Shown here: in pieces, positions 991 to 31,288 of the stretch
Position numbering within the stretch: position 1 is the stretch's first letter
Layout of the letters: the number at the start of each line of letters is the position of its first letter
Source: Planctomycetota bacterium
Lineage (GTDB): Bacteria; Planctomycetota; Phycisphaerae; Phycisphaerales; SM1A02
Direction of reading: 5' to 3'
Assembly: GCA_027295365.1 (NCBI GenBank)
Contig: JAPULD010000432.1
Span: 1-31,695, forward strand
DNA length: 31,695 nucleotides
Notes under the pieces: generated by a model
What the model was told of the DNA's origin: nothing
What the model saw: only the letters and a program-made list of their open reading frames with translations
Databases searched by the model: none
Translations under genes and position numbers: made by a program

Positions 991-2151
991 TCAGGAGATC
1001 ATTCGAGAGCTTATCGCTTTGATGATCTCTTTGGCAACGTACACACGGTTTCTCTCCTGCCCAGTCACCTCCTGCAATACGCTGGCTTCAACGAGACGGT
1101 TGATAGCGCGTTGGGCTGTTGTACTTGTGACTTCCAAGAGCTTTGCCGTTTCGCTCACCGTCAAAGCAGGCGTGGCGAACAACAGTTCGACCAGTGGGAT
1201 TGTGGTCGTCGCGCGATCGCCCGCGAATTGAATGCGATAGCGAGTTTGAAGGTCAATCAGCTTTTGTGCACGAATTGCGCCATCCTGAGCTGCTTCGGTC
1301 GCGGCACGCAGAAAATACAAGATCCACTCCCGCCAACGACTCTCATTGCTCACCGAGAGAAGATGCGCGTAGTACTCGTCTCGCCGCTTTTCTAAAGCAT
1401 CGCTGATATACAGCAGTGGCTCAGGAAGAATTTTATCCATGCAAAGACTTAGCACAATGAGTAACCGACCAATACGACCGTTGCCATCCTCGAACGGATG
1501 AATTGCCTCGAACTGATAGTGGACCAACGCAAGACGTACTAAAGGCGGCAACTCGCTTGGCGCATTAAGATATTCCTCAAGTCGATCAATCGTCTCATTT
1601 AATTCCGCAGGAGGTGGTGGAATATATGTGGCGTCTTCGATTGCGCAGTCGCGAGGACCTATCCAATTCTGAATCCTACGAAACTGTCCTCGTCGGCGTT
1701 CCTGCCCTCGCACCCGTTCCATCAATATCTCATGCAACTCGCGCATCAACCGACCACTGAGTGGCAATGTCGTACTGCGTTCGAGGCCGAAATCAAGCGC
1801 TCGAACGTAATTGTGCACTTCTCGTACATCCGAAAACGGCGATTCCATTGCTTGCGATGCTTCAAATAGATACAGATCATCAACCGATGCTTGAGTGCCT
1901 TCAATTCGACTCGACTGCACCGCCTCCCTTCGTTTGAAAGGCGCAACCAGCAAATGAGGATTTGGAAGCATGAGTCCGATGCTACTTAGGCGACCAATCG
2001 CTCTGTCGGACGCTGACACCATTGATACCATCTCGCTGTCCCACTCAACGACTGGTGGAAGTGGATTCGGTATGAATGCACGGCAAGATCCTGAGCCAGC
2101 TCCAGCACGCACAAATCGTCCGTTTGGTGAGGATTGACTTGTTGATCCCAT
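991..2151 (-). CDS. Fic family protein (class II: N-terminal Fic_N/inhibitory helix, C-terminal winged HTH)
   Basis: Canonical HPFEDGNGRIGR motif; (S/T)xxxEG inhibitory motif SSRIEGT upstream; C-terminal TVSETAKLLEVTSTTAQRAINRL. Start moved to ATG 2151 because the longer N-terminus runs through an AT-rich promoter-like region. Confidence 0.93.
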   Translation of the reverse strand: MGSTSQSSPNGRFVRAGAGSGSCRAFIPNPLPPVVEWDSEMVSMVSASDRAIGRLSSIGLMLPNPHLLVAPFKRREAVQSSRIEGTQASVDDLYLFEASQAMESPFSDVREVHNYVRALDFGLERSTTLPLSGRLMRELHEILMERVRGQERRRGQFRRIQNWIGPRDCAIEDATYIPPPPAELNETIDRLEEYLNAPSELPPLVRLALVHYQFEAIHPFEDGNGRIGRLLIVLSLCMDKILPEPLLYISDALEKRRDEYYAHLLSVSNESRWREWILYFLRAATEAAQDGAIRAQKLIDLQTRYRIQFAGDRATTTIPLVELLFATPALTVSETAKLLEVTSTTAQRAINRLVEASVLQEVTGQERNRVYVAKEIIKAISSRMIS

Positions 2152-2159
2152 GAGCGTCT

Positions 2160-2225
2160 CGTTATTCCACTTTGTGGTGCTTACTGGTTTTCTAATTCTA
2201 CTTATAGCTAAAAATTGGAATAACG
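2160..2225. repeat. 13/14-bp inverted repeat upstream of fic
   Basis: CGTTATTCCA-c-TTT (2160-2173) and AAA-t-TGGAATAACG (2212-2225), 38-nt spacer. Confidence 0.75.
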
Positions 2226-2228
2226 CAA
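2201..2228 (-). promoter_or_regulatory. Putative sigma70-type promoter for fic
   Basis: Minus strand TTGCGT-16 nt-TATAAG in an AT-rich stretch about 50 nt upstream of ATG 2151. Confidence 0.35.
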
Positions 2229-2333
2229 GCAAAACCCAAACAAATCCCTACATTTTTTGTACTAATACATTGTGGGCACACCGGAAGGACCCATAATCGA
2301 TCTTTCAATTCTTCAACGACAACCCATTTCGAC

Positions 2334-5126
2334 CTAAAAATCACCCGTCGGATTGAAGACGATTCTGGTCTGCTCCGCGTCGAACCCATGCTCATCAAAC
2401 AGCAGAAGTTCATTGGGTGAACCGTGCTTCAGCCATGACTCGGGCAGGTAGAGCATCGTCTGGGGGCCAACCGCCTTGCCTTGACCACATGCCGTGAAAT
2501 ATCGGCCCAGGTTGTGGCCATTGACATAGGCCTGACCCTTGCTCAGCCCGATCGTGTCCAGCCAGACCGGCATCGACCCGTCGTGACTCTTGGGCAGATC
2601 GAAACGCGTCTTCCACCAGCACGGCGCGCCCTTCAACTTCTTCACGTCAGCCTTCTCAAGCGCTTCGTAGGACGTCGGCATGGGCGGCTCCCACTTGGCG
2701 AACGACCACGTGGCCCCATCGGACAGCCCCTCGACGCATTCATAGATCGTCGTATGGTCCTTGATGTCCTTGAGCGGATTCTCCTGACCATGATCGGGTG
2801 CGAAGCGCAGGACGTTCTTGCCTCGCTTGAAGGCTTCGGTCATCTCCTGGCTCACCACGATCCGGGCAAAGGTCGCCCCGGTCGCCCCGGCGTAATACGC
2901 GATGGGAATATCGTTGAGCACGAACGAGCCGCTGCACAACGCGCCGTTGACGTCGATGAGGATGGACGTCTTTTTCAGATGGGTGAACGACCATTCCGCC
3001 TGCTGCATATCGCTGATGATGCCTTGGGCCGATCCCGAGATGAAGCCACGCAAGACAAACGGATCGACGGGCGAAGCTTCGACGGTTTTGGGTTTCGCTC
3101 CACTGATCGCCTTGACCTCATAGAGATGCCCGAACAGGCCCTTGGATCGACCAATGTCATTGCCATCGGCGAAGCGTCCCAGATTGTCGGCCAGGATCAC
3201 CAACGTATTCTCGCCCTTGGCAAGTTTGAGCTCGAACGGATCATTGCAAGCGCCGGGCCCGACGCCAAACACATGATCCAATGCACCATCGTTGAAGAGG
3301 TGCAGCCGATCGCCAGACTGGGGCAGATGGCACAGACGCTTCCGCGAGGAGTCGGATTTCAATGTGATGCGATACCAGCCATAGCCGGTCGATGCTCCAC
3401 ATTCCGAAAGCGTTTCAGGGCCGCTGAGCGAGGCAAATCGGGGGGATTGTCCCGAGTATTGCAACTGGGTTGAGGAAGCGGTCCAATCCGAGAGCTTGAT
3501 GGCTCTTGATTTGACGGCCCCCGACGACTTTCCCTTCGTATCGCTCTTGATGGAATCGACCTTTGCCTCAGAGGCGATCCGCCAGGCCTTGGTTGCGCCT
3601 TCGGGAAGAATCGGCTCGCCATCCGTGTCGAAGCCCTCGATGCCAACGTAGACATGCTCATCGTCGTGATACGTCTGGTCGATCTGATCCTGGTTCAGGA
3701 TGACCAGGGTGATTCCCTTGTGATCGATGACCAGCGGCTTGCTGCCACTGGGAACCGTCGCCTCGATCGGGCTTTCGTTGATGGAAAGCAAGGCGGGAGT
3801 TTTTTCGGGCCCGAACAACACGAGGATCGATCGATACACGATCGCCCAAGGGCAAAGATTGACGTAATCCAGCTTGGCCATGCCTCGCAAATCAACGTCG
3901 AAGACGAACCACGCCACGGGTTGATTGCCCAGATACACCTTCAACTTCAGGCCATTGTCGAGCAGCAGGGTGGTGTTCTTGACCTTGCCTCCGCCGAACA
4001 CGAAGACGGCTCGACCGTTCGAGCCCCGTTGCGGAACGATGGCGACGTTCGATGAACTCGCACGGTTCGTGGAGGAATCGTCGCTTTCGATCAATCCCGG
4101 GTCGAGCACGATCGGGTGGAAGTCGGGATTCAATTCCGAGAAGACGTGGCTGAAGTGATTGGCGAAGGTCACTAATCGCTTGGCCACGAGATATTTTTCG
4201 CTACGACCACCCGCCTCGGTCAACGGTGCGCCGTTGGCCGCGCTTGTGGTGACGAAGCCATCTGGCCTCCCCGACATGCGCCCTCCCAGGAAATCGAAAT
4301 TCGTCCCGGCGTGGAAGGGGGAAACGATGAACTGCGCCCCGGCCGCAAGAACCTCGCAAAGCCTTTCCAGGAAACGCCCCGGCGTCTTCTCGTCTTTTCC
4401 CGAATCACCCCAGGCGATCTCATGACCCACCGCCAAAGTGCTGACCAGTCGCGGCGCCTCGGGCTGAATTGCCCTCAGCTGCCTCAGATTAACCAGCAGA
4501 TCGTCCCACCCTCGCCAAGTTTCGATGGATCCGGCCGGCTCAGGCCATAGGTCGTTGGCGGTCAGAATGGGAATATTGAAACCACTCTCACGGATATACC
4601 GCCCCAGTTCCCGGTGGTACTTGTCCAGTTGGTCGGGATTCGAACAGCTCCAGCCATGTTCGGCCTGGACGAGGATTATCGGACCACCATCGGGGGCGGC
4701 CATGCCCTCCAACTCACCGACCAGTTTGCGCGTGTATCGACTGAATTGACCCAGGAAGTCAGGATCGGCTTCGCGAAGTTTCACTTCGGGTTGCACCATC
4801 AGCCAGCCCGGAATGCCAGAGCCGTCAAAACCAGCACCCACCGCTGGCCCCATTCTCAGGATGACTTTCATGTCCGCCTCGGCACAAAGCTCGACGAATC
4901 GTCGAATTTCAGCGCGACCCGTAAATTCAAAACGCCCTCGGCGTGGCTCATGGATCATCCAGGGACATGCGGTTTCGATGGTATTGAACCCGGCCTGCTT
5001 CGCCGCGGCGATATGATTGGCCCAGACTGATGGATCCATGCGGCAATACTGCATGGAGGCCCCAAGGACCCAGAAAGGTCGACCATCGAGAAGAAAACAC
5101 TGTTCGTTGTAGCTTACGGTTGGCAT
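2334..5126 (-). CDS. GH35 beta-galactosidase-like protein with degenerate active site (probable pseudoenzyme), ~930 aa, no signal peptide
   Basis: GH35 scaffold motifs AGFNTIET..W..HEP, GGPIILVQ, FHAGTNF and C-terminal KGQAYVNGHNLGRY..GPQ..LYLP..WL; but ENEY->EHGW, CAEW->GAGF, nucleophile EF->TL, TSYDYDAP->TSAANGAP. Confidence 0.88.
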   Translation of the reverse strand: MPTVSYNEQCFLLDGRPFWVLGASMQYCRMDPSVWANHIAAAKQAGFNTIETACPWMIHEPRRGRFEFTGRAEIRRFVELCAEADMKVILRMGPAVGAGFDGSGIPGWLMVQPEVKLREADPDFLGQFSRYTRKLVGELEGMAAPDGGPIILVQAEHGWSCSNPDQLDKYHRELGRYIRESGFNIPILTANDLWPEPAGSIETWRGWDDLLVNLRQLRAIQPEAPRLVSTLAVGHEIAWGDSGKDEKTPGRFLERLCEVLAAGAQFIVSPFHAGTNFDFLGGRMSGRPDGFVTTSAANGAPLTEAGGRSEKYLVAKRLVTFANHFSHVFSELNPDFHPIVLDPGLIESDDSSTNRASSSNVAIVPQRGSNGRAVFVFGGGKVKNTTLLLDNGLKLKVYLGNQPVAWFVFDVDLRGMAKLDYVNLCPWAIVYRSILVLFGPEKTPALLSINESPIEATVPSGSKPLVIDHKGITLVILNQDQIDQTYHDDEHVYVGIEGFDTDGEPILPEGATKAWRIASEAKVDSIKSDTKGKSSGAVKSRAIKLSDWTASSTQLQYSGQSPRFASLSGPETLSECGASTGYGWYRITLKSDSSRKRLCHLPQSGDRLHLFNDGALDHVFGVGPGACNDPFELKLAKGENTLVILADNLGRFADGNDIGRSKGLFGHLYEVKAISGAKPKTVEASPVDPFVLRGFISGSAQGIISDMQQAEWSFTHLKKTSILIDVNGALCSGSFVLNDIPIAYYAGATGATFARIVVSQEMTEAFKRGKNVLRFAPDHGQENPLKDIKDHTTIYECVEGLSDGATWSFAKWEPPMPTSYEALEKADVKKLKGAPCWWKTRFDLPKSHDGSMPVWLDTIGLSKGQAYVNGHNLGRYFTACGQGKAVGPQTMLYLPESWLKHGSPNELLLFDEHGFDAEQTRIVFNPTGDF

Positions 5127-5282
5127 ATACTGGAATCCTGACCCCAGAAGATTGAGCACTTGGTCACATTTCTACGATTAATCGCCCTCCAGTTCCATGG
5201 TTGGGCAACCTGGATGGGCGGACATCATACCAGCCTGTGCGATTCAAATCCGGGATATCTCCACCTCATCGAGGTCATCATC

Positions 5283-7103
5283 ATGCGAACCGAATTTCCG
5301 TCGATTGATCCATGTCCCGGCAAACTCGTCGTAGTAGGCCTTCTTTTGCTGATTCAGACCGGCTGCTCTTCGAGCTTCGAGGAAATCGACCAGCATGTCG
5401 TCGCGATGATGAAGGAGACCAACAACGATATCGGGGGTGATCTCTTCACCCCGATCATGACGGACTGGGATCTCGACGAGGCCGAACGGGCCACCATTCT
5501 GGAATACGATCCCAATGCCGAATTCATCCCCACGGTGAATCCCGACGCGGTGGCGTTGAAATTCGTGCCCTCCCCCGAGGAGGATGCCGAGAACGTCATC
5601 GCCAGACTGGAGCGGTACAACAATATCTCCGAGGATGCACATCACCTGGACCTGATTGAGAGCCTTGCCTATTCGATCAAGCACAGCCGGGAGTATCGTT
5701 TCGCGGAGGAGGAATTCGTCCTCGCCAGCCTGCGATTGCTGATCGAACAACATCGCTGGGGACCTCGATTCTTCGATGAGGTTTCCGCCACCATCGATGG
5801 CAATGGCAATGACGGGTTTTACGACACCTCGTTCCAACTGGTCAACGAGTTTCGCGTCACCCAGCGACTGCCCTATGGGGGCACCGTCAGCGCTCGGGCC
5901 TTGTCCCGGGCCACGGAAGAACTCCATGGCATGGTCTTCGATGGGGACACCAACAGCACCGACATCATTCTCTCCGCCGACATCCCGCTCCTCAGGGGGG
6001 CCGGCAACGTCGCGCGCGAAGATCTGATCCAGAATGAACGGAACATGATTTACGCGGCACGCAGCTTTGAGAATTTTCGCCGCGAATTCCTGGTCGATAT
6101 CTCCCGGGACTTCCTGAACCTGGTCTTCCAGAATCGCAGCATCAACAACAGCCAACGCCGGGTTGAGAGCAGTGAAAGAGTCGAAAACCGGCAACGTGCC
6201 TTGTATGAATCAGGTCGAATTGACCGCTTTGACGCCTCGCTGGCGGAAAACAACACCGTCAACGCACGCGACAGCCTGAACCGCAGCCAGGAAAGCTACC
6301 GATTGTCTGTTGACCAGTTCAAGGTCCGGATCGGCATGCCCATTGATCAGGATGTGATCATCGATGAATCGAATCTGGGATTGCAAGCCCCACTCGTTTC
6401 GATCAACGACGCCGTCCGGATCGCCATGGCCCTTCGATTGGATTTGCAGAATCAAAGAGATCAGCTTGGCGACGCAAAAAGGCAGGTTGACAATGCCCGC
6501 AACGACTTGCTGCCTGACCTTGATTTTGATGCCTCGGTCACCTTTCCGACCGACCCGGATCGGGACAATGGAGACTTTGATTTCTCACCTGATGACATGG
6601 ACTTTCGGACGGGGATTACGTTTGGCCTGCCTCTCGATCGGGAGATCGAGAGGATCAACGTTCGGCAAGCCCAGATCAACTTGGAGCGATCCCGTCGCCG
6701 ATATGAGCAATTCCGAGATGGTGTGGCGACGGAAGTCAGGGCCGCGGTACGAAGCATTGATGCTGCTCTTTTCAGTCTGGATATCCAGGAACGTGGCGTC
6801 GAAATCGCCAATCAGGGCATCGCGAGTATTCTGGCCGCCCCGGATCGGGCAGATGCCCGAGCGATGGTGGATGCGATCGATGATCAGATCGAGGCCAAGG
6901 ATGGTCGCGATCGAGCGAAACGCGACCTCGAAATCGCCATTCTTTTCTACTTACGTGATTCGGGACAGCTTCGTGTAGACGACAATGGGACGATTCTGCC
7001 TCTCCAGGGCATGGTGATCACTCCGAAAGATCCCACCGAGGGTGACGATGAGGCTGATAACCCCATTCTGGACCTGGCTCCACTCGATGAAAGCGGTTCT
7101 TGA
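5283..7103 (+). CDS. TolC-family outer membrane efflux protein (lipoprotein)
   Basis: Signal-like LVVVGLLLLIQTG-C lipobox; two OEP-type repeats (..ADIPLLRGAG.., ARNDLLPDLDFDASV..GLPLDREIER); start set at ATG 5283. Confidence 0.88.
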   Translation: MRTEFPSIDPCPGKLVVVGLLLLIQTGCSSSFEEIDQHVVAMMKETNNDIGGDLFTPIMTDWDLDEAERATILEYDPNAEFIPTVNPDAVALKFVPSPEEDAENVIARLERYNNISEDAHHLDLIESLAYSIKHSREYRFAEEEFVLASLRLLIEQHRWGPRFFDEVSATIDGNGNDGFYDTSFQLVNEFRVTQRLPYGGTVSARALSRATEELHGMVFDGDTNSTDIILSADIPLLRGAGNVAREDLIQNERNMIYAARSFENFRREFLVDISRDFLNLVFQNRSINNSQRRVESSERVENRQRALYESGRIDRFDASLAENNTVNARDSLNRSQESYRLSVDQFKVRIGMPIDQDVIIDESNLGLQAPLVSINDAVRIAMALRLDLQNQRDQLGDAKRQVDNARNDLLPDLDFDASVTFPTDPDRDNGDFDFSPDDMDFRTGITFGLPLDREIERINVRQAQINLERSRRRYEQFRDGVATEVRAAVRSIDAALFSLDIQERGVEIANQGIASILAAPDRADARAMVDAIDDQIEAKDGRDRAKRDLEIAILFYLRDSGQLRVDDNGTILPLQGMVITPKDPTEGDDEADNPILDLAPLDESGS

Positions 7104-7257: not shown

Positions 7258-9024
7258 ATGGCGACCAGTGCCATGCTCATTGTCATCGTGCTGATCGGGC
7301 TCGCCGCCAGCAGCCTGTGGTTCTTCAAGCGCGGTGCCGCCATCGACTCTTCGATCATGGCGATGGATACCTTCACCGTTCAAAAGGGAAGTTTTGACGT
7401 CATCATCCCGACCACAGGTGAACTGGCCGCGATCCGCCAGATCGAGATCCGCAACGAGATGGAGCAAAGGGCCACGATCACGTATGTCGTCGATGAAGGG
7501 ATTCGAATCAAGGCGGGCGAGGTGCTTCTGAAATTCAACGACGAGACCATCCTCAACAACATCAAGGACGCCGAGGATTCGCTGGACAGCGCGATCAATC
7601 GACTCGAAAACACCAAGGCCACGCTGGAGATTCGCAAGAAGACCCGCGAGTCGGAACTGGCCAAGGCTGACCTGGAAATCACCCTGACCGGTCTGGCCCT
7701 GCAATCCTGGAAGGAAGGCGAGGTCGTCGAGACGCGACAGGACCTGGCGCTGGAGTTGAAGACCGCCCAGATGGAATTCGATCGACTTCAGGATCGGTTC
7801 GTCGCGTCGGAGCGACTCTACATTCAGGAATTCATCAGCCTCGACGAGTACAAGCAGGATGAAATCTCGTTGGTCCGCGCCGAGACGAGACTCAAGCAGG
7901 CGAACCTCGACATCGAGATCTACGAGAAGTACGAATACAAACAACAATTCGAGAAGAACAAGTCTGATCGTGTTCAGGCCGTCGAAGAACGTGATCGGAC
8001 GCAGCAACGCCAAGACGCTGAAGTGCGAAGCGTCGAGAGCGATGTGAAGGGCGCCGAGCGACAAGTCCAAAGCCGCCGGGAAAGACTGGACAAGTGGACG
8101 CATCAGCTCGGATTGTGCGAAATCATCGCGCCGTCGGATGGCTTGGTCGTCTACGCCTCAAGTCTCTCGACCGGGGGGATGGGCCGGCGCGACGAAGATC
8201 CACCCATGATCGGCACCGAAGTGCAATCCATGCGGACCATCATGATTCTGCCCGATACAAGTCAGATGATTGCCGAGGTCAAAGTCAACGAAGCCCTCAG
8301 CGGCATGATCAAGCGAGGTCAGCTCACGACCATCGTGACCGACGCCTTCCCCGACACCGTCTTTGCCGGTGAGATCTACAGCGTGGGGGTGCTGGCCGAA
8401 AGTGGCGGCTGGCGAGATCCGACCCGACGCGATTACACCATCAAGATTGCGATCGACCCAAGCGAGTTGGCCTCCCGACTCAAGCCCTCCATGCGCTGCC
8501 GGGCCGACATCAACGTCGGGAACGTCCGGGACGCCATGTACGTCCCGATTCAGGCGATCCATCGGCAAGGTCCGGTCGCTTATGTCTGGGTTCCCGATGG
8601 ACGAGGCTATTCACAACGTCAAGTCAAGACGGGTCGAGCCTCGGAATTGTACGTCGAGCTTCTGGAAGGGGTGGAGCTGGGCGATCACGTGCTCCTGCGT
8701 TCCCCCGAGCCAAAGGAAATCGAAGCGATGCTGGACATTCCGGCGGCAGGATCCATCGCGAGTCTGGAGCTTTCCTCGGAACAGACCACGGAACATTCGG
8801 CTGGTCACTCCAATCAAGACCAGACCAATCAACCCCAACCTTCCCGGCGAGGTCAATCGGGACGCGGACGTCCGTCCGCCGAACAGATTGAGAAGATGAT
8901 GGAAAACATGACCCCCGAGCAGAAAAAGGCCATGGAGGACCGCATCAAGAAGCGGCAAAACGGGGCGGGTGGTCATTCTGAAGGCGAATCCCATCAACAA
9001 CCCGAAGGCGATGGGACTCAATAA
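7258..9024 (+). CDS. Efflux periplasmic adaptor subunit (HlyD/MacA-like), paralogue 1
   Basis: N-terminal TM; lipoyl halves VVDEGIRIKAGEVL / IIAPSDGLVV flanking a long coiled coil; beta-barrel VKVNEA; MP domain VPIQAI; low-complexity tail. Confidence 0.92.
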   Translation: MATSAMLIVIVLIGLAASSLWFFKRGAAIDSSIMAMDTFTVQKGSFDVIIPTTGELAAIRQIEIRNEMEQRATITYVVDEGIRIKAGEVLLKFNDETILNNIKDAEDSLDSAINRLENTKATLEIRKKTRESELAKADLEITLTGLALQSWKEGEVVETRQDLALELKTAQMEFDRLQDRFVASERLYIQEFISLDEYKQDEISLVRAETRLKQANLDIEIYEKYEYKQQFEKNKSDRVQAVEERDRTQQRQDAEVRSVESDVKGAERQVQSRRERLDKWTHQLGLCEIIAPSDGLVVYASSLSTGGMGRRDEDPPMIGTEVQSMRTIMILPDTSQMIAEVKVNEALSGMIKRGQLTTIVTDAFPDTVFAGEIYSVGVLAESGGWRDPTRRDYTIKIAIDPSELASRLKPSMRCRADINVGNVRDAMYVPIQAIHRQGPVAYVWVPDGRGYSQRQVKTGRASELYVELLEGVELGDHVLLRSPEPKEIEAMLDIPAAGSIASLELSSEQTTEHSAGHSNQDQTNQPQPSRRGQSGRGRPSAEQIEKMMENMTPEQKKAMEDRIKKRQNGAGGHSEGESHQQPEGDGTQ

Positions 9025-9059
9025 ATGGATTCAATCGGCTCCAATTCAAGTAGGTTTGC

Positions 9060-9095
9060 CGAGCGTCTCCATCCAGGGTGACGCTCGTTCTTTTT
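9060..9095 (+). terminator. Putative intrinsic terminator between adaptor 1 and adaptor 2
   Basis: CGAGCGTC (9060-9067) / GACGCTCG (9080-9087) stem followed by TTCTTTTT, 35 nt after the stop. Confidence 0.6.
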
Positions 9096-9237
9096 GGCTT
9101 CGGTCAGAAACATGGTGTAAACTTTTGGGTTCTTGAGACATGTTTTTCTGAGGATCGGTTTTTCAGACATCAGGACAGACCGAGACCCTCCCCACGTTTT
9201 CTGCGATAGATGATTGCCCGAACTTTCAGGTGAAACA

Positions 9238-10953
9238 ATGACACGACGAAGCAGTTCACGACGCGGCCTGTCCATGATGAGCGTTGCTCTCTTTGTGCTC
9301 TTCCTGGCCACCATCGCCATGGGGGGTTGGTGGATGACTCGACAAGCGAATATTGCCGACAGCGTAGACTCGATCGACCTGTTCGAGACTCGCCAAGGTG
9401 GATTCGACATCATCATTCCCGCGTCGGGCGAGCTCGCTGCGATCAGTGAAACTGAAATTCGAAACGAGATGGAGCAAAGGGCGACGATCATCCAGATCGT
9501 CGACGAAGGCGTCGAGGTCAAGCAAGGTGATTTGCTCATCCAGTTCAACGACGAAGGCGTGCGCACGAAAATCGACGATGCCGAGGATGCGCGGGACAAC
9601 GCGATCAACCAACTCGAAAATGCGAAGGCCAGCCTGGAGATCCGGAAGAAGACCCGCGAGTCGGACTTGGCGAAAGCCGATCTTGACATCACGTTGACCG
9701 AGCTGGCTTTGCTATCGTGGGAGGAAGGCCAAGTCGTCGAGATGCGACAGAATCTTGATCTCGAGCAAAAGACGACCCTTATGGAATACGATCGTTTGAA
9801 GGACCGCTTCAAGGCCTCGAAGCGTCTGTACGAGCAGGAGTTCATCAGCCTCGACGAGTTCAAGCAGGATGAAATTGCCCTCGTGAGGGCCGAGACACGG
9901 CTCAAGCAGGCCCAGCTCGACATCGAAATCTACGAGAAATACGAGTACAAGCAGCAGCGTGAGCAGAAGGAATCGGATCGACAACAGGCCATTGACGAGC
10001 GGGATCGCATCCAGCAACGCAACGATGCCAATGTCAGCAGCGCCGAGAGCGATGTCCGCAGCGCCGATCGGCTTCTCAACAGTCGCAAAGAACGACTCCA
10101 GAAGTGGCAGAACCAACTCAAGCTCTGCACCATCATCGCGCCCACATCGGGTCTGGTCATCTACACCTCAAGCCTCAACACCGGAGGTCATGGCCGGAGC
10201 AATGATGCCCCCCCCATGGTGGGCACCGATGTCTCATCCAAGAAAACCATCATGATCCTCCCCGATACGTCGGAGATGATTGCCGAGGTGAAGGTGAACG
10301 AAGCCCTCAGTGGTCAGATCATGAATGGCCAGATGGCCACCATCGTCTCCGATGCCAAGCCCGATCTCATGCTGAGAGGCAGGGTCTTCAGCGTTGGCGT
10401 GCTGGCGGAAACGGGAGGCTGGCGCGATCCCCACCGACGCGATTACACCGTAAAGATCCTGATCGAGAACTACGATCGCAGCCAGGGCCTCAAGCCCTCC
10501 ATGCGATGCCGGGCCGACATCAATGTCGGTCGAGTGGATGATGCCACGTACGTGCCGATTCAGGCGGTGCATCGCCAGGGGCCGGCCGCGTTCGTCTGGA
10601 TTCCCGATGGCCGAGGCTATTCCCAGAACAAGATAGACATTGGTCAGGCTTCAGAACTCTATGTCGAAGTGCTGAATGGCCTGGACGCCGGCCAAATTGT
10701 CCTGATGAGGGAGCCAAACCCCAAGGATATCGTGGCGATGCTGGACATTCCCGCGGGTCCCGTGAACCCATTGGCTCCGCCTTCCACATTCGGTCCTGAT
10801 GAAAACCGAGGCGATGCATCGCGTGGTGGTACTGATGCTTCATCTGCCCAACCGCCAGCCCATCAAGGCAGGGGCTCGAATGGTGGCCACGATCGCTCCG
10901 GTGACAAAAATCGACGCTCAGGGAATGATTCAAGCACTGAATCGGGCCAGTAA
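9238..10953 (+). CDS. Efflux periplasmic adaptor subunit, paralogue 2
   Basis: Same architecture; aligns without gaps to paralogue 1 at an offset of 2010 nt through the hairpin tip; start set at ATG 9238 (AGGTG upstream). Confidence 0.92.
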   Translation: MTRRSSSRRGLSMMSVALFVLFLATIAMGGWWMTRQANIADSVDSIDLFETRQGGFDIIIPASGELAAISETEIRNEMEQRATIIQIVDEGVEVKQGDLLIQFNDEGVRTKIDDAEDARDNAINQLENAKASLEIRKKTRESDLAKADLDITLTELALLSWEEGQVVEMRQNLDLEQKTTLMEYDRLKDRFKASKRLYEQEFISLDEFKQDEIALVRAETRLKQAQLDIEIYEKYEYKQQREQKESDRQQAIDERDRIQQRNDANVSSAESDVRSADRLLNSRKERLQKWQNQLKLCTIIAPTSGLVIYTSSLNTGGHGRSNDAPPMVGTDVSSKKTIMILPDTSEMIAEVKVNEALSGQIMNGQMATIVSDAKPDLMLRGRVFSVGVLAETGGWRDPHRRDYTVKILIENYDRSQGLKPSMRCRADINVGRVDDATYVPIQAVHRQGPAAFVWIPDGRGYSQNKIDIGQASELYVEVLNGLDAGQIVLMREPNPKDIVAMLDIPAGPVNPLAPPSTFGPDENRGDASRGGTDASSAQPPAHQGRGSNGGHDRSGDKNRRSGNDSSTESGQ

Positions 10954-11137
10954 GTACTTACCGATACAGCTTCGAGGAACCAGCGACTTTTTCAATTCAC
11001 CAAATCTTCGACGAAGTCCTTCTTTTTGCCGAGATAAAATGGCGGTTAATGCGTTAATACCAAATACAAGAGGTTGAACGTCCAACTTCGTCATATCCGA
11101 GGGGTACAAAGGAGAGACCCTCATTGAGGACAGCGCC

Positions 11138-12871
11138 ATGCAGGGATCACACTCGCCAAAGCATCACAAGTTTCGAACGATTCACCCTCGGCGCGGAATC
11201 TCCTCCCTGAGCGTAGTCGTGGCGATCCTGATGTTGGGGGCAATCGCCATCGGGGCGCGGTACTTGCCGAGTTCTTCAAATCAAACACCCGACCAAGGCG
11301 ATATGGATCTCTTCGAGGTCGTCCGGGGCAATTTTGAAATCATCATTCCCACCACGGGTGAATTGGTCGCCAAGAACCAGACTGAGATCAAGAATCAACT
11401 CGAATCAAGAGCCGTCATCACCGAGATCGTCGAGGAGGGAACGATTGTCAGCAAGGGCGACATCCTGATTCGATTCAACGATGAAGAGATTCAAAACCGA
11501 CTCGACGATGCCGAGGAATCCGTGAACAGCTCCAGAAATGATTTGGAGAATGTCCAGGCGGAACTGGAAATTCGCAAGAAGACCCGGGATTCGGAAAACG
11601 AGAAAGCCAAACTGAAGATTGAATTGGCGGAATTGGATCTCAAGGGTTGGGAGAAGGGGGAGGTGGTCACCCGCCGTCAGGATCTTGCTCTCGCGATGGA
11701 AACCGCGGAACTGAATTACAACCGTCTTCAGGAACGCTTTGAAGCTTCCCAAAGGTTATACGAGCAGGAATTCATAAGCCTTGATGAATTCAAGCAGGAC
11801 CAGATTTCATTGGTTGAAGCGAAGGCCCGACATAAACAAGCCAAGCTCGACATTGAAGTCTACGAGAAGTACGAATTCCAGAAGCAGCAGAAGCAGAAGG
11901 TCTCCAATCTCGAACAGTCCAAGAAGGAATACGAACGCGTCAAGGCCAGACAGGATGCGCAAGTCCGTCAATCCGAAAGTGACGTCGTCTCCCGCCAGCG
12001 CCGACTCGACAGCAAATTGGATCGCTTGGAACGGCACAAGAAACAACTCATCGCCTGCTCCATCGAGGCCCCCCAGGATGGGCTTGTCGTCTACGCGTCA
12101 AGCCTTGAAGGATTCAGGTGGATGCGGGACCGGGGTATGAACATCCAGGTCGGGACCGAGATGTGGCACAACCAGCTCATCATGATCCTGCCCGACACGT
12201 CGCAGATGATCGCCGAGGTCAAGATCAACGAGGCGCTGAGCGGTCAGATTCAGCCGGGGCAGACCGCGACCATCACGTGCGATGCGTCCCCCGACGATGT
12301 GCTCACTGGGGTCGTCGAAAGCATCGGCGTCTTGGCCGAGAATGGCGGCTGGCGCGATCCCAATCGTCGCGATTACACCGTTCGGATCAGGCTAGATGGC
12401 GACAACACCCTCGATTTGAAACCATCCATGCGTTGTCAGGCCGACATCATGATCGACCGGATCGATCAGGCCTTGCACATCCCCCTTCAGGCGGTGCATC
12501 GCCAGGGAGCCGCGACCTTCGTGTATGTCCCGGATGGTTCGGGTTTCTCGCAACGCAAGGTCGCATTCAACCGGGCTTCGGAACTCTACATCGAGATCAG
12601 CGAGGGCCTCGACGCGGGCGATCGCGTCCTACTCCGCGAGCCTACCCCTGAGGAGATCGTCGCGAAGATCGATCCCGCGAAATGCAAACCGGTGGAAACC
12701 AACGCCCCAGACGATCGCCTGGCCAAGGGTCCCCAGCAAGGCAGCCCCGAATCGAACGCGCTGATTCAACAACAGCAGCCCGAGTCGAACCTGATCACGA
12801 GCGACGATTCCGATTCCGAATCTGAGGGCGATGAGGATGAAGGGGACATCACGGGTCCGACGACCGAGTGA
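11138..12871 (+). CDS. Efflux periplasmic adaptor subunit, paralogue 3
   Basis: Same architecture; offset 1930 nt from paralogue 2; GAGGA 6 nt upstream; acidic tail. Confidence 0.92.
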   Translation: MQGSHSPKHHKFRTIHPRRGISSLSVVVAILMLGAIAIGARYLPSSSNQTPDQGDMDLFEVVRGNFEIIIPTTGELVAKNQTEIKNQLESRAVITEIVEEGTIVSKGDILIRFNDEEIQNRLDDAEESVNSSRNDLENVQAELEIRKKTRDSENEKAKLKIELAELDLKGWEKGEVVTRRQDLALAMETAELNYNRLQERFEASQRLYEQEFISLDEFKQDQISLVEAKARHKQAKLDIEVYEKYEFQKQQKQKVSNLEQSKKEYERVKARQDAQVRQSESDVVSRQRRLDSKLDRLERHKKQLIACSIEAPQDGLVVYASSLEGFRWMRDRGMNIQVGTEMWHNQLIMILPDTSQMIAEVKINEALSGQIQPGQTATITCDASPDDVLTGVVESIGVLAENGGWRDPNRRDYTVRIRLDGDNTLDLKPSMRCQADIMIDRIDQALHIPLQAVHRQGAATFVYVPDGSGFSQRKVAFNRASELYIEISEGLDAGDRVLLREPTPEEIVAKIDPAKCKPVETNAPDDRLAKGPQQGSPESNALIQQQQPESNLITSDDSDSESEGDEDEGDITGPTTE

Positions 12872-14270
12872 CGATCTCTTCGGGGAGCGATTTCAATTCA
12901 GTGGTCGTGATCGGGCGAATATCGATCTCGACCGGGACGGGTGGATCAATCTCCAGCTCCGTGGTCGCGTTCAATTCCTTGAGACGGCGGGTGCTGGTGA
13001 GCAGATTGCGTTCCAGCGAACCCACGGCGGCGTTGTAGGACTTGTTGGCCTTGCCCAGACTGTCGCCCACCTTCTCGAAGTGAGTCACGAACACCCGCAG
13101 GCGACTGTACAGTTCCTTGCCGACTTCGGTGATCTGTTTCGCGTTCGCCGCCGCCGCGTCCTGATGCCATCCATACGCAATGGTTTTCAGAAGCGCCACC
13201 AGGATCGTCGGGGACGTGACGATCACGTGATCCTGCATGGCCTTCGACTGCAAGTCAGGCGCCACTTGCATGGCGGCATACAATCCCGCCTCCAGGGGCA
13301 TGAACATGACGACGAAGTCGGGTGTGTGTTCGAACTGACTCCAATACTTCTTGCTCGCTAGTCTGGTGACGTGGTCCTGGACCTGCTTCGCGTGTGCCTT
13401 TAATCGTTCCGCATGGTCAGACTCTGGTTCCAAGGCATCAAGATACGCATCCATCGCAACCTTCGAATCGACAACGATGACGCCACCCCCCGGCACCCTG
13501 ACCACTAAATCGGGGCGATCTCGCGTCGTGGGATCGTCGGTCTGTGGCTGTTCCTCGAAATCGCAATGCTCCGTCATCCCCGCCATCTCGACGACGTTCC
13601 GCAACTGCATCTCGCCCCAACGGCCTCGCTGTTCGGGACGACGCAGTGCGCTGACGAGCTTGCCGGTCTGGGTGTCGAGTTTCTCATGGGAGGCCGCGAT
13701 CATCTTGATCTGCTCTTCGAGGCCCTTGTAGGCCACATCGCGTTTCTTCTCGATTTCCGTCACCGCAAGGTTCTGCTTCTCCAGCAATTCCTTGATGGGC
13801 TTGACGAGATTGTCGATCGCCAGCTGACGCTTCTCGACATCCCCTTTGGCCGAGGTCATCTGCGTCTCAAGCACCTTCTTGGCCAGCTCGATGAACTGCT
13901 CGTTGTTCGCGGCCAGGGCCTTGGCCCCCAACGCGGTGAACGTGTCGGCCAGTTCCTTCTTGGCATCACCCAGGAGCTGCCTTTGCTCCTCGAATTGCTT
14001 TTCCTTCACCACCAGCCGCTCGGTCAGCGTCGCCAGTTCCCGCTGGGCCACTTCGCGTCGCTCGTTGGCCTCCAGGGTCTGTTGCCGCCCCTCGCGCAAG
14101 GCTTCGTCGTCGTCCCGCGCCTGTTGCTCAAGCAGTTCCGCCCTGGCCTTGAGGTTTGCCATGTCCCCCTGAGCCTCTCCTCGACGGCTCATCATCCATA
14201 AAGTGGCCACCGCACCCCCCAGCCCGGCGCCGATCCCCAACCCGATCAATGCATCAATCCAATCGATCAT
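12849..14270 (-). CDS. rmuC: DNA recombination protein RmuC
   Basis: N-terminal TM, long coiled coil, RGRWGEMQL and nuclease-like RPDLVV..IVVDSK, FVVMFMP; 23-bp convergent overlap with adaptor 3. Confidence 0.95.
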   Translation of the reverse strand: MIDWIDALIGLGIGAGLGGAVATLWMMSRRGEAQGDMANLKARAELLEQQARDDDEALREGRQQTLEANERREVAQRELATLTERLVVKEKQFEEQRQLLGDAKKELADTFTALGAKALAANNEQFIELAKKVLETQMTSAKGDVEKRQLAIDNLVKPIKELLEKQNLAVTEIEKKRDVAYKGLEEQIKMIAASHEKLDTQTGKLVSALRRPEQRGRWGEMQLRNVVEMAGMTEHCDFEEQPQTDDPTTRDRPDLVVRVPGGGVIVVDSKVAMDAYLDALEPESDHAERLKAHAKQVQDHVTRLASKKYWSQFEHTPDFVVMFMPLEAGLYAAMQVAPDLQSKAMQDHVIVTSPTILVALLKTIAYGWHQDAAAANAKQITEVGKELYSRLRVFVTHFEKVGDSLGKANKSYNAAVGSLERNLLTSTRRLKELNATTELEIDPPVPVEIDIRPITTTELKSLPEEIVTRSSDP

Positions 14271-17007: not shown

Positions 17008-17169
17008 TTTTCTGCTACAATTTCAACCTGAAGGCACCTTCCTTTCGAGGCAAGGCCGGGGCCTTCTGGCGGATTATGACAATTATAGTGTCTGTTCGAT
17101 GCACACTTTGCATTGAATAGCCGTCAAAACCCCAAGCAACACTGGCTTACACACATGCAAGAAAATGAT

Positions 17170-18789
17170 ATGAATGTGACATCAGACACATTAAAAGAAT
17201 TCATCTGTAAAGACATTTATAAGTCTGCAATTTTCAAAGGCCAATGGGGAATTGGTAAAACATTTTACTGGCACAAATTCGTTAGGGATAATATGGATGT
17301 ATTAAAAGATAGCTTTCAAGCCTATTCATATGTTTCCGTTTTTGGTGCTTCTACTATTTCAGATATCAAAACTAGTATTTTCAATAACTATAAACCCACT
17401 GATAACAAATCTCGATATCGCCATATCGATAAGCTAAAACCACACATTAAAATTCTAAAATCTTTAAATTTGCCTTACTTAGATTCTACAGACTTTATAT
17501 CTGACTACCTTGAAAACAATTTGTTTAAAAATATGTTGATATGTTTTGATGACCTAGAAAGAAAAGAAGAGGATATTTCCATGTCTTCATTACTGGGATT
17601 AATAACACACCTCAAAGAGGAAAAAGGTTGTAAAATCATACTCATACATAATGATGAAGGATTAGATGAAATTAATCTAAATAAATTCAATGAGTATCGA
17701 GACAAGGTTTTTGATCTCGAACTTTCGTATATGCCTTCAATTGATTCAAATCTGTCAATCATCTGGCCAAAAGGGATTGACCATAGTACTCGTGAAGTTT
17801 TTCAATTACTTAATTTGAATAACATCCGAATCATGCAACGCGTAAAGTGGGCCCAAGAATACTTTTATGAATTCATCAGTAATAATTACACCCACCTCAA
17901 TAATGCTTTTATGCTAAAATGCACTAAGATGGCAATAATTTACCATGCTTATGGAAAGAAATACAAACTAGCAGAATTAACAAAAGAAAATACACTAGCT
18001 CGACTGCTCTCTACCTATAAAAATGGCCCCACCGATGAGAACGAAGATGGATCACTTGATATCCTGAAAATCTTAGAATATAGGGCAGAAGACCAAGATA
18101 TCATCATTGCAAACTATCTAACCAATGGATACGTCAATTTTCTCGATTACAAAGAGCTGCTAGACGCAGCAGAAACTGCATATCAAAAAGGTAACGTTGA
18201 GGGGAAATATTGGGATACATGGAAAAAATATAGTGACAATTTCGCCATAAAGCAGGATGAATTTATTTCACAACTTCAAGAATTCATAAAGACACATGCT
18301 AAAGACCTATCACTCTATCATGTTTCTGAATCAATTAAATTTCTTTCTGATATGTCACCAGAGATTGACTTAGATAAATTACTTGATGATTCAATTGAAA
18401 AATATGTGTCTGAAAATGAAGAGATCCGTGAACGAGATCTCACGCATCCAAATATGCCTAGAGAATTGATCGATCGTATTTTGGAGAAGGCTGGTGCCAA
18501 GGGAAAAAAATACACGCTTTTAGAAATTTTCAAATCCCTTGCTGGCAGCAATAGTTGGACCCCAGAAGAAGTAAATCGCCTAGGCCATTTTGAAGCTAGT
18601 GATTTTGTTAACTGGCTGACAAATGAAAACGATGGCCAAGTAATCCAATTAGTTAGAAATTTCAAGAATCGATTTCATGGCGACAATGAAATTGAAATAT
18701 CAGTCCTTGAAAAACTAAACCACGCTCTTGAAATAATGAAAAATAGAAGTGCCTTAGACAAAGACAGAGTTGAAAAACTAATTAATTAA
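17170..18789 (+). CDS. KAP-family P-loop NTPase, AT-rich, solo gene
   Basis: Walker A GQWGIGKT, Walker B LICFDDLER, KAP-like NKFNEYRDKVFD and NIRIMQR; GC about one third versus ~60% in flanks; start uncertain (17113/17155/17170). Confidence 0.85.
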   Translation: MNVTSDTLKEFICKDIYKSAIFKGQWGIGKTFYWHKFVRDNMDVLKDSFQAYSYVSVFGASTISDIKTSIFNNYKPTDNKSRYRHIDKLKPHIKILKSLNLPYLDSTDFISDYLENNLFKNMLICFDDLERKEEDISMSSLLGLITHLKEEKGCKIILIHNDEGLDEINLNKFNEYRDKVFDLELSYMPSIDSNLSIIWPKGIDHSTREVFQLLNLNNIRIMQRVKWAQEYFYEFISNNYTHLNNAFMLKCTKMAIIYHAYGKKYKLAELTKENTLARLLSTYKNGPTDENEDGSLDILKILEYRAEDQDIIIANYLTNGYVNFLDYKELLDAAETAYQKGNVEGKYWDTWKKYSDNFAIKQDEFISQLQEFIKTHAKDLSLYHVSESIKFLSDMSPEIDLDKLLDDSIEKYVSENEEIRERDLTHPNMPRELIDRILEKAGAKGKKYTLLEIFKSLAGSNSWTPEEVNRLGHFEASDFVNWLTNENDGQVIQLVRNFKNRFHGDNEIEISVLEKLNHALEIMKNRSALDKDRVEKLIN

Positions 18790-29979: not shown

Positions 29980-30003
29980 TCACATTCATGGATTAGGCGC
30001 TAT

Positions 30004-30714
30004 TCACTCCCCTGGATTCAAGCGATACGAATTTAGCCTACGTTTCGTAACGTCGGCCAATTCAGCCGCTGATACAAATTTGCAATACTTTGAAGCTTCG
30101 ACGGACGTCACTTCAATTGGATTGATCGAATCTGTTTCAGGAGTCAACATAAAACGCAATTCTTTTTGATACGCGTATTTCGTATCCTTTATCAGAGCCG
30201 GAGGCACATCAGTATCTTGTGAGTAGTGGATTACTCGGTCGGCATACTGGCAGTGACCAAAATACACGTTATTGAGATCCAACGGTGACACATTGTGGAT
30301 AGCTTGGGCCAATACGTTGATGAATTCTATCGGACGCAATATCTTCAATACACAATTGTATTCGGGACTGAGCCTGTCCATTATCTCTAAATCAAGCTCA
30401 CATGATCCGCAAAATAGAAACATATCCTGACTATATATTTTCTTGCTGAACTGGCAGTTCACCATTGAGCTGCCTCGACCTGTCAACTTTACAAATGATT
30501 TAGTGAATTCCGGAATTGATTCTGGTCTATCAGCGTACATGTCATCGTCTGAATATATGGTCTTGGTCCCTTCGCCAGAATCTCCAATATCATCTCCATA
30601 ATTTTCTTTCCTTCTAAAATCGCCTAGTGTTCCTATGAGAAAACGACCGGCACGAAGTTGACGTGCATATCGACGTTCCATGTATTTATAAAACACCGGT
30701 AGCGATTTATTCAT
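30004..30714 (-). CDS. AT-rich hypothetical protein with ADP-ribosyltransferase-like motif order (DUF2971-like)
   Basis: FYKY near N-terminus, FLFCGS centrally, KDTKYAYQKELRF near C-terminus; GC about 40%. Confidence 0.7.
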   Translation of the reverse strand: MNKSLPVFYKYMERRYARQLRAGRFLIGTLGDFRRKENYGDDIGDSGEGTKTIYSDDDMYADRPESIPEFTKSFVKLTGRGSSMVNCQFSKKIYSQDMFLFCGSCELDLEIMDRLSPEYNCVLKILRPIEFINVLAQAIHNVSPLDLNNVYFGHCQYADRVIHYSQDTDVPPALIKDTKYAYQKELRFMLTPETDSINPIEVTSVEASKYCKFVSAAELADVTKRRLNSYRLNPGE

Positions 30715-30769
30715 AATGTCATTTTACTCATCATTTGATGGTCCGTCGATCCGCCTCATGACTAGATGC

Positions 30770-30800
30770 GTGCCACAAGCATTGTGGCTCGACGTGGCAC
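30770..30800. terminator. Hairpin between dinB and the AT-rich gene (two alternative stems)
   Basis: GCCACAA-GCA-TTGTGGC (30772-30788) or GTGCCAC/GTGGCAC (30770-30776 / 30794-30800); no clear U-tract. Confidence 0.3.
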
Positions 30801-30820
30801 CTGACAAGACCTTTTAAAAA

Positions 30821-31288
30821 TCAAATCTGATCCCATCCCCACAATGAGTACACCGCATCCTTGTCGAGCGTTTCGCCGCTCACTTTGAGCGTCAACAAAA
30901 TGCGGCCCCGGTGATGGCTTTCGTGGGAGACGAAATACGCCAGCGTGGTGAACAGCCCTCGCCTGAAACCTCGACGCTTTGGCTTGCCTTCACACAGATC
31001 CACCAGATACGTCTGCATGGCTTTGTCCGAGGCGATGAACGCCTTGCGAATCTGCGCCCTCGTGGGTGTGTCCTTGGCAGTGTATTTCACCAAGCCCTTG
31101 CCGAGATCCGGCGCTCGCTTTTCCAATTGCCATACACGGTTGGTGTGCATGTGGGCCAGTTCGCCAAGTACGCCCCGGCCACCCCGCTTCGACAACGTGC
31201 AGTTCAATCCCTCATCGCTGATGTTGTCGATCAGCTTCAGATTCATGCGGCAGTTCGCCCCCCAAGCCTCGATCATTTCCTCGATCAC
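30821..31288 (-). CDS. DinB/YfiT-family protein
   Basis: LAHMHTNR and SHESHHRGRI metal-binding His pattern, 155 aa, GTG start with AAAGGG upstream. Confidence 0.88.
   Translation of the reverse strand: MIEEMIEAWGANCRMNLKLIDNISDEGLNCTLSKRGGRGVLGELAHMHTNRVWQLEKRAPDLGKGLVKYTAKDTPTRAQIRKAFIASDKAMQTYLVDLCEGKPKRRGFRRGLFTTLAYFVSHESHHRGRILLTLKVSGETLDKDAVYSLWGWDQI

Follow-up and report, generated by a model that had tools for sequence, protein, structure and literature searches.

A 31,695-nucleotide stretch of contig JAPULD010000432.1 (assembly GCA_027295365.1), from a Planctomycetota bacterium of the order Phycisphaerales (SM1A02), carries a gene for a 930-residue protein of glycoside hydrolase family 35 (GH35) at positions 2334 to 5126 of the minus strand. 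The whole stretch, at its full length, is called the window below. The protein is a pseudoenzyme, in that its homology to GH35 is clear, the residues essential for catalysis are lost, and it is maintained by selection. It is probably a cytoplasmic GH35 ortholog of five domains that has lost catalysis and is kept by purifying selection for a putative non-catalytic role, as far as can be judged from sequence comparison. The loss is not confined to the window, as the same active site has degenerated repeatedly in orthologs across the order.

The GH35 scaffold and its former active site

The ORF list gives an uninterrupted open reading frame (ORF) on the minus strand from 2334 to 5159. The conserved start within it is the ATG at 5126, found in the same register in 112 of 120 relatives, and the resulting coding sequence (2334-5126, minus strand) comprises 930 codons and a stop codon at 2334-2336. 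Its translation is identical to database protein P0002. An earlier note, made on this DNA from the letters alone, had described an intact frame of about 930 residues without a signal peptide, and both points hold. Neither a signal peptide nor a transmembrane segment was found in the protein, its best 19-residue Kyte-Doolittle mean being 1.36, and it is predicted to be cytoplasmic.

Membership of GH35 is supported by both sequence and fold. The Pfam profile Glyco_hydro_35 (PF01301) matches residues 22-331 of a 941-residue frame at 2.4e-53, over profile positions 2-317 of 319, scoring 182 bits where the cut-off is 27, so that the catalytic domain is covered whole. A second profile, BetaGal_gal-bd (PF21467), matches the C-terminus at 2e-18. 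The AlphaFold model is of high confidence (predicted local distance difference test, pLDDT, 92.2; predicted template-modelling score, pTM, 0.92), and its best matches in the PDB are all GH35 proteins, sharing the barrel and beta-sandwich fold. It superposes as a whole on five- or six-domain GH35 structures, namely the archaeal enzyme of Desulfurococcus amylolyticus (8qqh, TM-score 0.76) and the fungal enzymes 4iug, 3og2, and 1tg7 (about 0.67-0.69). The GH35 scaffold proposed in the earlier note is thus borne out by profile, model, and superposition, but its "extra beta-sandwich insertions" are not insertions, since the whole model superposes on these structures and the canonical orthologs are equally long. 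Five domains are the ordinary architecture of large GH35 enzymes.

Like these large enzymes, the window protein consists of a triose-phosphate isomerase (TIM) barrel followed by four beta-sandwich domains, and it retains the HEP motif, the first Glu of ENEY, the GYGWYR motif, and the C-terminal jelly roll. The identity over the structural alignment is just 13-16%. Two differences stand out: the fungal GH35 enzymes are secreted, whereas the window protein is predicted to stay in the cytoplasm; and, unlike in 8qqh, 4iug, 3og2, and 1tg7, the acid/base and nucleophile Glu and all Tyr, Asn, and Glu residues of the -1 subsite are replaced here.

The active-site motifs were placed by aligning the protein residue by residue, with phmmer, to the solved GH35 structures 7kdv, 6eon, and 3d3a and by alignment to the canonical orthologs, and pocket geometry was judged from these alignments only. 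At 4650-4667 (minus strand, as for all the motifs that follow), QAEHGW stands in place of QVENEY, so that the Asn becomes His157 and the acid/base Glu, expected right after it at the end of strand 4, becomes Gly158. At 4422-4442, STLAVGH replaces NSEFYTGW or TELWPGW (SEFYTGW), and the nucleophile Glu, expected where strand 7 ends, becomes Thr230. Three further motifs have lost their sugar-binding residues: ACPWM replaces YVPWN at 4956-4970, with the loss of Tyr and Asn; AVGAGF replaces YICAEW at 4827-4844, with the loss of Glu; and TSAANGAP replaces TSYDYDAP at 4224-4247, with the loss of Tyr. The galactose-binding Tyr, Asn, Glu, and Tyr of the -1 subsite are represented by Ala53, Met57, Gly99, and Ala296/Asn298, and the residues that replace the sugar-binding ones are small or hydrophobic. 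All five replacements had been listed in the earlier note, and the alignments reproduce each of them, with the position of the acid/base motif exact to the nucleotide.

The replacements recur among 83 relatives. The acid/base column contains Ala in 58, Gly in 11, Ser in 5, Asn in 4, Asp and Arg in 2 each, and Glu in a single protein (Ala, Gly, or Ser in 74). The nucleophile column contains Ala in 35, Glu in 17, Thr in 8, Gln in 5, and Ser in 4. The column of the Asn that precedes the acid/base residue contains His in 74 of the 83, and the scaffold residues are invariant. The window protein, therefore, lacks the acid/base Glu, the nucleophile Glu, and the -1 subsite residues by which an active retaining beta-galactosidase is recognized in sequence, and it can presumably no longer act as one.

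Recurrent loss of the active site among single-copy orthologs

Searching with the protein yielded at least 120 relatives of full length, with identities of 47-74%. The named relatives come from metagenome-assembled genomes of Planctomycetota or Phycisphaerales, and most of them are labelled "beta-galactosidase"; the misannotation by automated pipelines that the earlier note anticipated is indeed present in public records. By the names on those records, the order concerned is that of marine Phycisphaerales. A long GH35-like gene is present in 90 of the 121 sampled genomes of the order, nearly always in single copy, and no second GH35 gene was found in the window's own genome (3.84 Mb, 80% complete).

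To read the gene's history, 71 genome loci were fetched, a tree was built, and ten canonical active-site positions were read in each protein. The gene tree tracks the genome families, which indicates that the genes are orthologs; the window gene is the ortholog of an order-wide single-copy gene and did not arise as a paralog by duplication. Part of family f4 and part of f2 have kept the canonical signature, YNYENEEWYY, in full. The active site is degenerate in all sampled members of f1 (the window's family), f3, f100, and f101, in a nested subclade of f4, and in three separate lineages of f2. This distribution corresponds to at least five independent losses of the active site among the 71 loci, a count that assumes that the ten canonical residues are never regained. 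In a tree of 253 database proteins, about ten further degenerate lineages are scattered inside a mostly canonical clade.

The degeneration is graded. Members of f100 and part of f3 keep Glu or Asp at both catalytic positions and have lost the sugar-binding residues, while in f1 the nucleophile is lost (Thr, Ala, Ser, Ile, Val, or Leu) and the acid/base residue is usually lost too. The canonical orthologs (among them P0122 of genome G117, and L066-L068, L070, and L071 of f2) have the same length as the window protein, the same N-terminal register without signal peptide, the same five domains, and a single copy per genome, with about 35-41% identity to it. They differ from it in having kept the full signature and in a far less constrained domain 4. 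One of them, P0122, lies among genes for a GH29 alpha-fucosidase, a GH28 enzyme, and a GH78 rhamnosidase (locus L025, 11197-18718), a context that hints that the ancestral enzyme took part in degrading complex glycans of algal or pectic kind.

Because catalysis was lost repeatedly from a gene in single copy, and not after duplication, the non-catalytic job that the scaffold would now perform was probably already carried out beside catalysis in the ancestor. A stronger form of this idea is that the large cytoplasmic GH35 protein of Phycisphaerales has all along performed a non-catalytic function besides hydrolysis, for instance as a sensor or regulator of the divergent TolC/adaptor operon described below or as the scaffold of a complex in the cytoplasm. 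Such an ancient function would explain why a gene present in one copy could lose its active site time after time and yet be retained. This stronger form is rather unlikely; if true, the orthologs would show a moonlighting glycosidase of bacteria in all phases of its conversion to a pseudoenzyme.

Constraint after the loss

The degenerate gene is under purifying selection. For pairs within one genus carrying degenerate copies, the ratio of non-synonymous to synonymous substitution rates (dN/dS) ranges from 0.09 to 0.26, at unsaturated dS of 0.2-0.65. A 92%-identical pair from the window's clade gives an overall dN/dS of 0.185, with 0.095 for the TIM barrel and 0.127 for domain 4. Together with the intact ORFs of 850-997 residues found in 120 relatives, these values across orthologs agree with the earlier note, which had taken the protein to be maintained.

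They also bear on the suggestion that the gene is a functionless, slowly decaying relic whose interruption is still to come. Several observations in f1 are in keeping with decay: the gene has been deleted or has strongly diverged in several lineages of this family, and in part of it degenerate orthologs diverge faster than the adjoining TolC-like outer-membrane efflux lipoprotein (OEP; about 30% against 42% identity). In addition, two orthologs (G309 and G316) are reported to have one internal stop each. Nevertheless, dN/dS of 0.09-0.26 at unsaturated dS, the constant length of more than 100 intact ORFs at about 47-74% identity, and the gain of constraint in some regions all argue against it, and a relic is very unlikely.

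The shift of constraint was followed by comparing 120 proteins of the degenerate clade with 91 canonical proteins. Over 15 pocket columns, the mean entropy is 2.40 bits in the degenerate clade and 0.14 in the canonical set, although the zero entropy of seven of these positions in the canonical set is partly by construction, as they served to define it; the eight pocket positions outside that definition are still 93-100% conserved in canonical orthologs. In the remainder of the barrel, the entropies are 1.27 and 1.10 bits, respectively. The degenerate clade has 80 barrel positions of high conservation; the canonical orthologs share 60 of them, and no new constellation of acidic residues and His was found among the other 20. 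Domain 4 behaves in the opposite way to the pocket, with 21% of its columns at least 90% conserved in the degenerate clade against 4% in the canonical set. Taken together, these figures indicate that the pocket was released from constraint, that the fold was not, and that some surfaces came under new constraint.

The changes can be assigned to the domains of the window protein, all encoded on the minus strand. The (beta/alpha)8 TIM barrel (residues 1-340, 4107-5126), delimited by PF01301 and by the secondary structure of the model, has the lowest dN/dS of the domains and has gained the near-invariant R62, R133, and R218. It is followed by a linker and beta-sandwich domain 2 (residues 341-535, 3522-4106), with clade-specific conserved D412, D420, Y421, and H469, and by beta-sandwich domain 3 (residues 536-700, 3027-3521), both placed from the model; domain 3 has a weak BetaGal_ABD_1 match. 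Beta-sandwich domain 4 (residues 701-800, 2727-3026) is the one in which constraint was gained, and its segment FKRGKNVLRFAPD (2793-2831) holds the clade-specific invariant R768 and R774 and an inserted D778. The C-terminal jelly-roll domain 5 (residues 801-930, 2337-2726) corresponds to the BetaGal_gal-bd match. The new near-invariant residues of domains 2 to 5 are D412, D420, H469, R563, H716, R768, R774, D778, E796, E813, and W838. A bulk charge shift was considered as a cause of the gained arginines and rejected, the median isoelectric points (7.35 against 6.63) being unremarkable.

Both catalytic Glu and the -1 subsite residues are thus gone and the former pocket positions drift, while the protein is kept whole, with purifying selection strongest in the dead TIM barrel. 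New conserved Arg, Asp, His, and Trp positions have been gained in the beta-sandwich domains 2 and 4. If the scaffold indeed has a non-catalytic job, this is most likely binding or scaffolding, through the beta-sandwich domains and the surface of the barrel, and it is this job that selection would now preserve; the newly constrained beta-sandwich surfaces are what suggests it. The word "repurposed", used in the earlier note, is therefore supported in part, by the gain of constraint in domain 4 and at several Arg, Asp, and His positions; it is suggested by them rather than proven.

Alternatively, the protein could still be an enzyme, with a remodelled and enlarged pocket that uses other residues, such as Glu156-His157, for a different chemistry or substrate. 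The pocket aromatics have been exchanged for Ala, Gly, Ser, or Pro and the Asn for His; throughout the clade, Glu156 is invariant and His157 conserved to 90%. Constraint is strongest in the TIM barrel (dN/dS 0.095), a Glu or Asp is often found at both catalytic positions in f100 and f3, with His replacing the Asn, and solved proteins of the GH35 fold are known with other activities, for instance a beta-1,2-glucosyltransferase (7vkw) and exo-glucosaminidases. However, Glu156 is equally invariant in canonical enzymes, which makes it part of an inherited scaffold; the remaining pocket columns vary widely (mean 2.40 bits), as those of a conserved substrate site would not; and the barrel contains no new conserved acidic or nucleophilic residue, the nucleophile column holding Ala, Glu, Thr, Gln, or Ser. 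Continued catalysis of this kind is accordingly quite improbable.

Several points, besides the partial circularity of the pocket comparison, weigh against a dead protein kept for binding. Glu156, invariant here as in canonical GH35, and His157 persist beside the old acid/base position. The carboxylates of f100 and f3 raise the possibility that the ancestor of the clade may first have changed its specificity and not died. The gene is dispensable in some f1 lineages, since in six of ten examined genomes without a clear match no remnant lies beside the OEP gene.

The divergent operon and known pseudoenzymes

Upstream of the GH35-like gene, an intergenic region of 156 base pairs (5127-5282), presumed to contain divergent promoters, separates it from a head-to-head gene for a TolC-like protein; the same arrangement is seen in about 50 related loci. 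The TolC-like gene (5283-7103, plus strand) encodes the OEP (PF02321, 1e-24, with an N-terminal lipobox). It is followed on the plus strand, within 7258-12871, by three tandem genes for membrane-anchored adaptors, identified by Pfam as HlyD/MacA-like (7258-9024, 9214-10953, and 11138-12871), whose N-termini have short cytoplasmic tails of about 4-30 residues ahead of the anchor. No ABC gene was found in the locus.

The head-to-head OEP gene was found in all eight metagenomic loci examined of the window's clade (L003 and L004 encode one and the same protein and are counted apart). Among genome loci with enough upstream sequence, it was found in 15 of 16 in f1, 26 of 27 in f3, the single locus of f101, and 6 of 16 in f2. 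It was found in none of 14 loci of f4, canonical or degenerate, and in none of four informative loci of f100. An association of this adjacency with the dead state was rejected, because five fully canonical f2 orthologs also adjoin the OEP gene head-to-head and the degenerate copies of f4 and f100 do not.

Over the 121 genomes, an OEP ortholog is present in 89, spread over five families other than f4. None was found in the 19 genomes of f4, where the GH35-like gene occurs in 16. In f100, both genes are present in 11 of 11 genomes but are unlinked. Conversely, ten f1 genomes have the OEP gene without a clear GH35-like match. In four of these ten, a very diverged or shortened intact copy lies beside the OEP gene (876, 920, 858, and 766 residues), and in the other six the neighbours are unrelated genes. 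The diverged OEP-side homologs, at about 23-35% identity, lie at L090 2266-4896, L094 1973-4735, L098 2009-4585, and L097 1935-4235, one of them being shortened to 766 residues. In a co-loss test, the two genes come and go independently, and an obligate coupling between them was rejected. As each gene also occurs without the other, and as canonical copies likewise adjoin the OEP gene, the adjacency represents old synteny, possibly with co-expression through the shared 156 base pairs, and not evidence of a physical partnership.

This bears on the possibility that the GH35-like protein is a cargo or physical partner of the adjoining TolC-like/adaptor conduit, through type I-like export or as a pump subunit. 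The absence of a signal peptide is compatible with such a role, as is the retention of the head-to-head pair across f1, f3, f101, and part of f2 at 30-50% protein identity while the other flanks vary. Against this stand the occurrence of the genes apart (in f4, in f100, and in the ten f1 genomes), a tail of about 19 residues after the last domain, as in unlinked canonical orthologs and thus without C-terminal extension, the lack of any RTX repeat (GGxGxD) in a protein with about 12 Cys, the short cytoplasmic tails of the adaptors, and a locus without an ABC gene. A cargo or partner role is scarcely likely. A type I secretion substrate was rejected on the same grounds: no RTX repeat, no C-terminal extension, a Cys-rich sequence, no ABC gene, and independent presence and absence over the 121 genomes.

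The arrangement could also be that of a cytoplasmic sensor or regulator of the divergent efflux operon, in which the old glycosidase body would serve as a ligand- or partner-binding module. Conserved divergent gene pairs often consist of a regulator and its target, and here the divergent arrangement with its short shared intergenic region is conserved; the new conserved arginines and the more constrained domain 4 could form a binding surface. Yet no DNA-binding or signalling domain was detected by Pfam in the protein, either gene is present or absent irrespective of the other, and canonical enzymes occupy the same position. Moreover, no conserved operator was seen by eye in the shared region beyond one genus, although no formal motif search was run. 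Such a regulator is very improbable. Within that genus, a block GGCTGGCCATTCGCG ... GTCTAATATC ... GGTTCA is kept upstream of the GH35-like start in L018, L020, L021, and L022; it is a candidate promoter or operator and was not seen in other genera.

An RmuC gene lies close to the cluster of OEP, adaptor, and GH35-like genes in the window (12849-14270, minus strand) and in L002 (13333-14721) and L003 (4399-5823), which come from complete or near-complete genomes and have GH35-like copies just about 50% identical to that of the window; it may belong to the same old syntenic block. Directly downstream of the GH35-like gene and on the same strand, a gene for a Fic/DOC protein (991-2232, minus strand; Fic_N, Fic, and helix-turn-helix domains) is not conserved in related loci. 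The segment 17001-19000, with a GC content of 0.34-0.39 against about 0.55-0.63 elsewhere and a 558-residue ORF (17113-18789) without a Pfam match at E ≤ 0.001, is probably acquired DNA. A second, milder dip in GC content (0.446) is found at 30001-31000.

Proteins derived from glycosidases that have lost their catalytic function include the GH18 chitinase-like lectins, the GH13-like 4F2hc and rBAT transporter subunits, and Klotho. The GH28 pseudoenzymes of leaf beetles have the same kind of origin (PMC6549527). The dead GH35 ortholog resembles these cases in that a glycoside hydrolase fold is kept under selection after catalytic loss and acts, as presumed or shown, by binding. It differs from them in that they arose by duplication beside active paralogs, in eukaryotes, whereas the protein described here is a single-copy bacterial ortholog with repeated loss and no duplication. 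In the literature searched, no report was found of a GH35 pseudoenzyme or inactive GH35 protein, of Phycisphaerales in connection with GH35, or of this gene.

The recurrent loss of an active site without duplication is the most notable aspect of this gene. The usual account of a pseudoenzyme is that a gene was duplicated and one copy then lost catalysis; here the active site was lost at least five times, within one bacterial order, in a single-copy ortholog that is still conserved. The orthologs constitute a natural series, from canonical enzymes through altered pockets that keep carboxylates to fully dead, fast-diverging, and finally deleted copies, and this series offers a way of probing what roles a glycosidase scaffold can have besides hydrolysis. 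For the annotation of the family, well over a hundred clusters in the databases are very probably not beta-galactosidases, the name they bear wherever a public record names them specifically, and this misnaming inflates the carbohydrate-degrading capacity predicted for the genomes of marine Planctomycetota.

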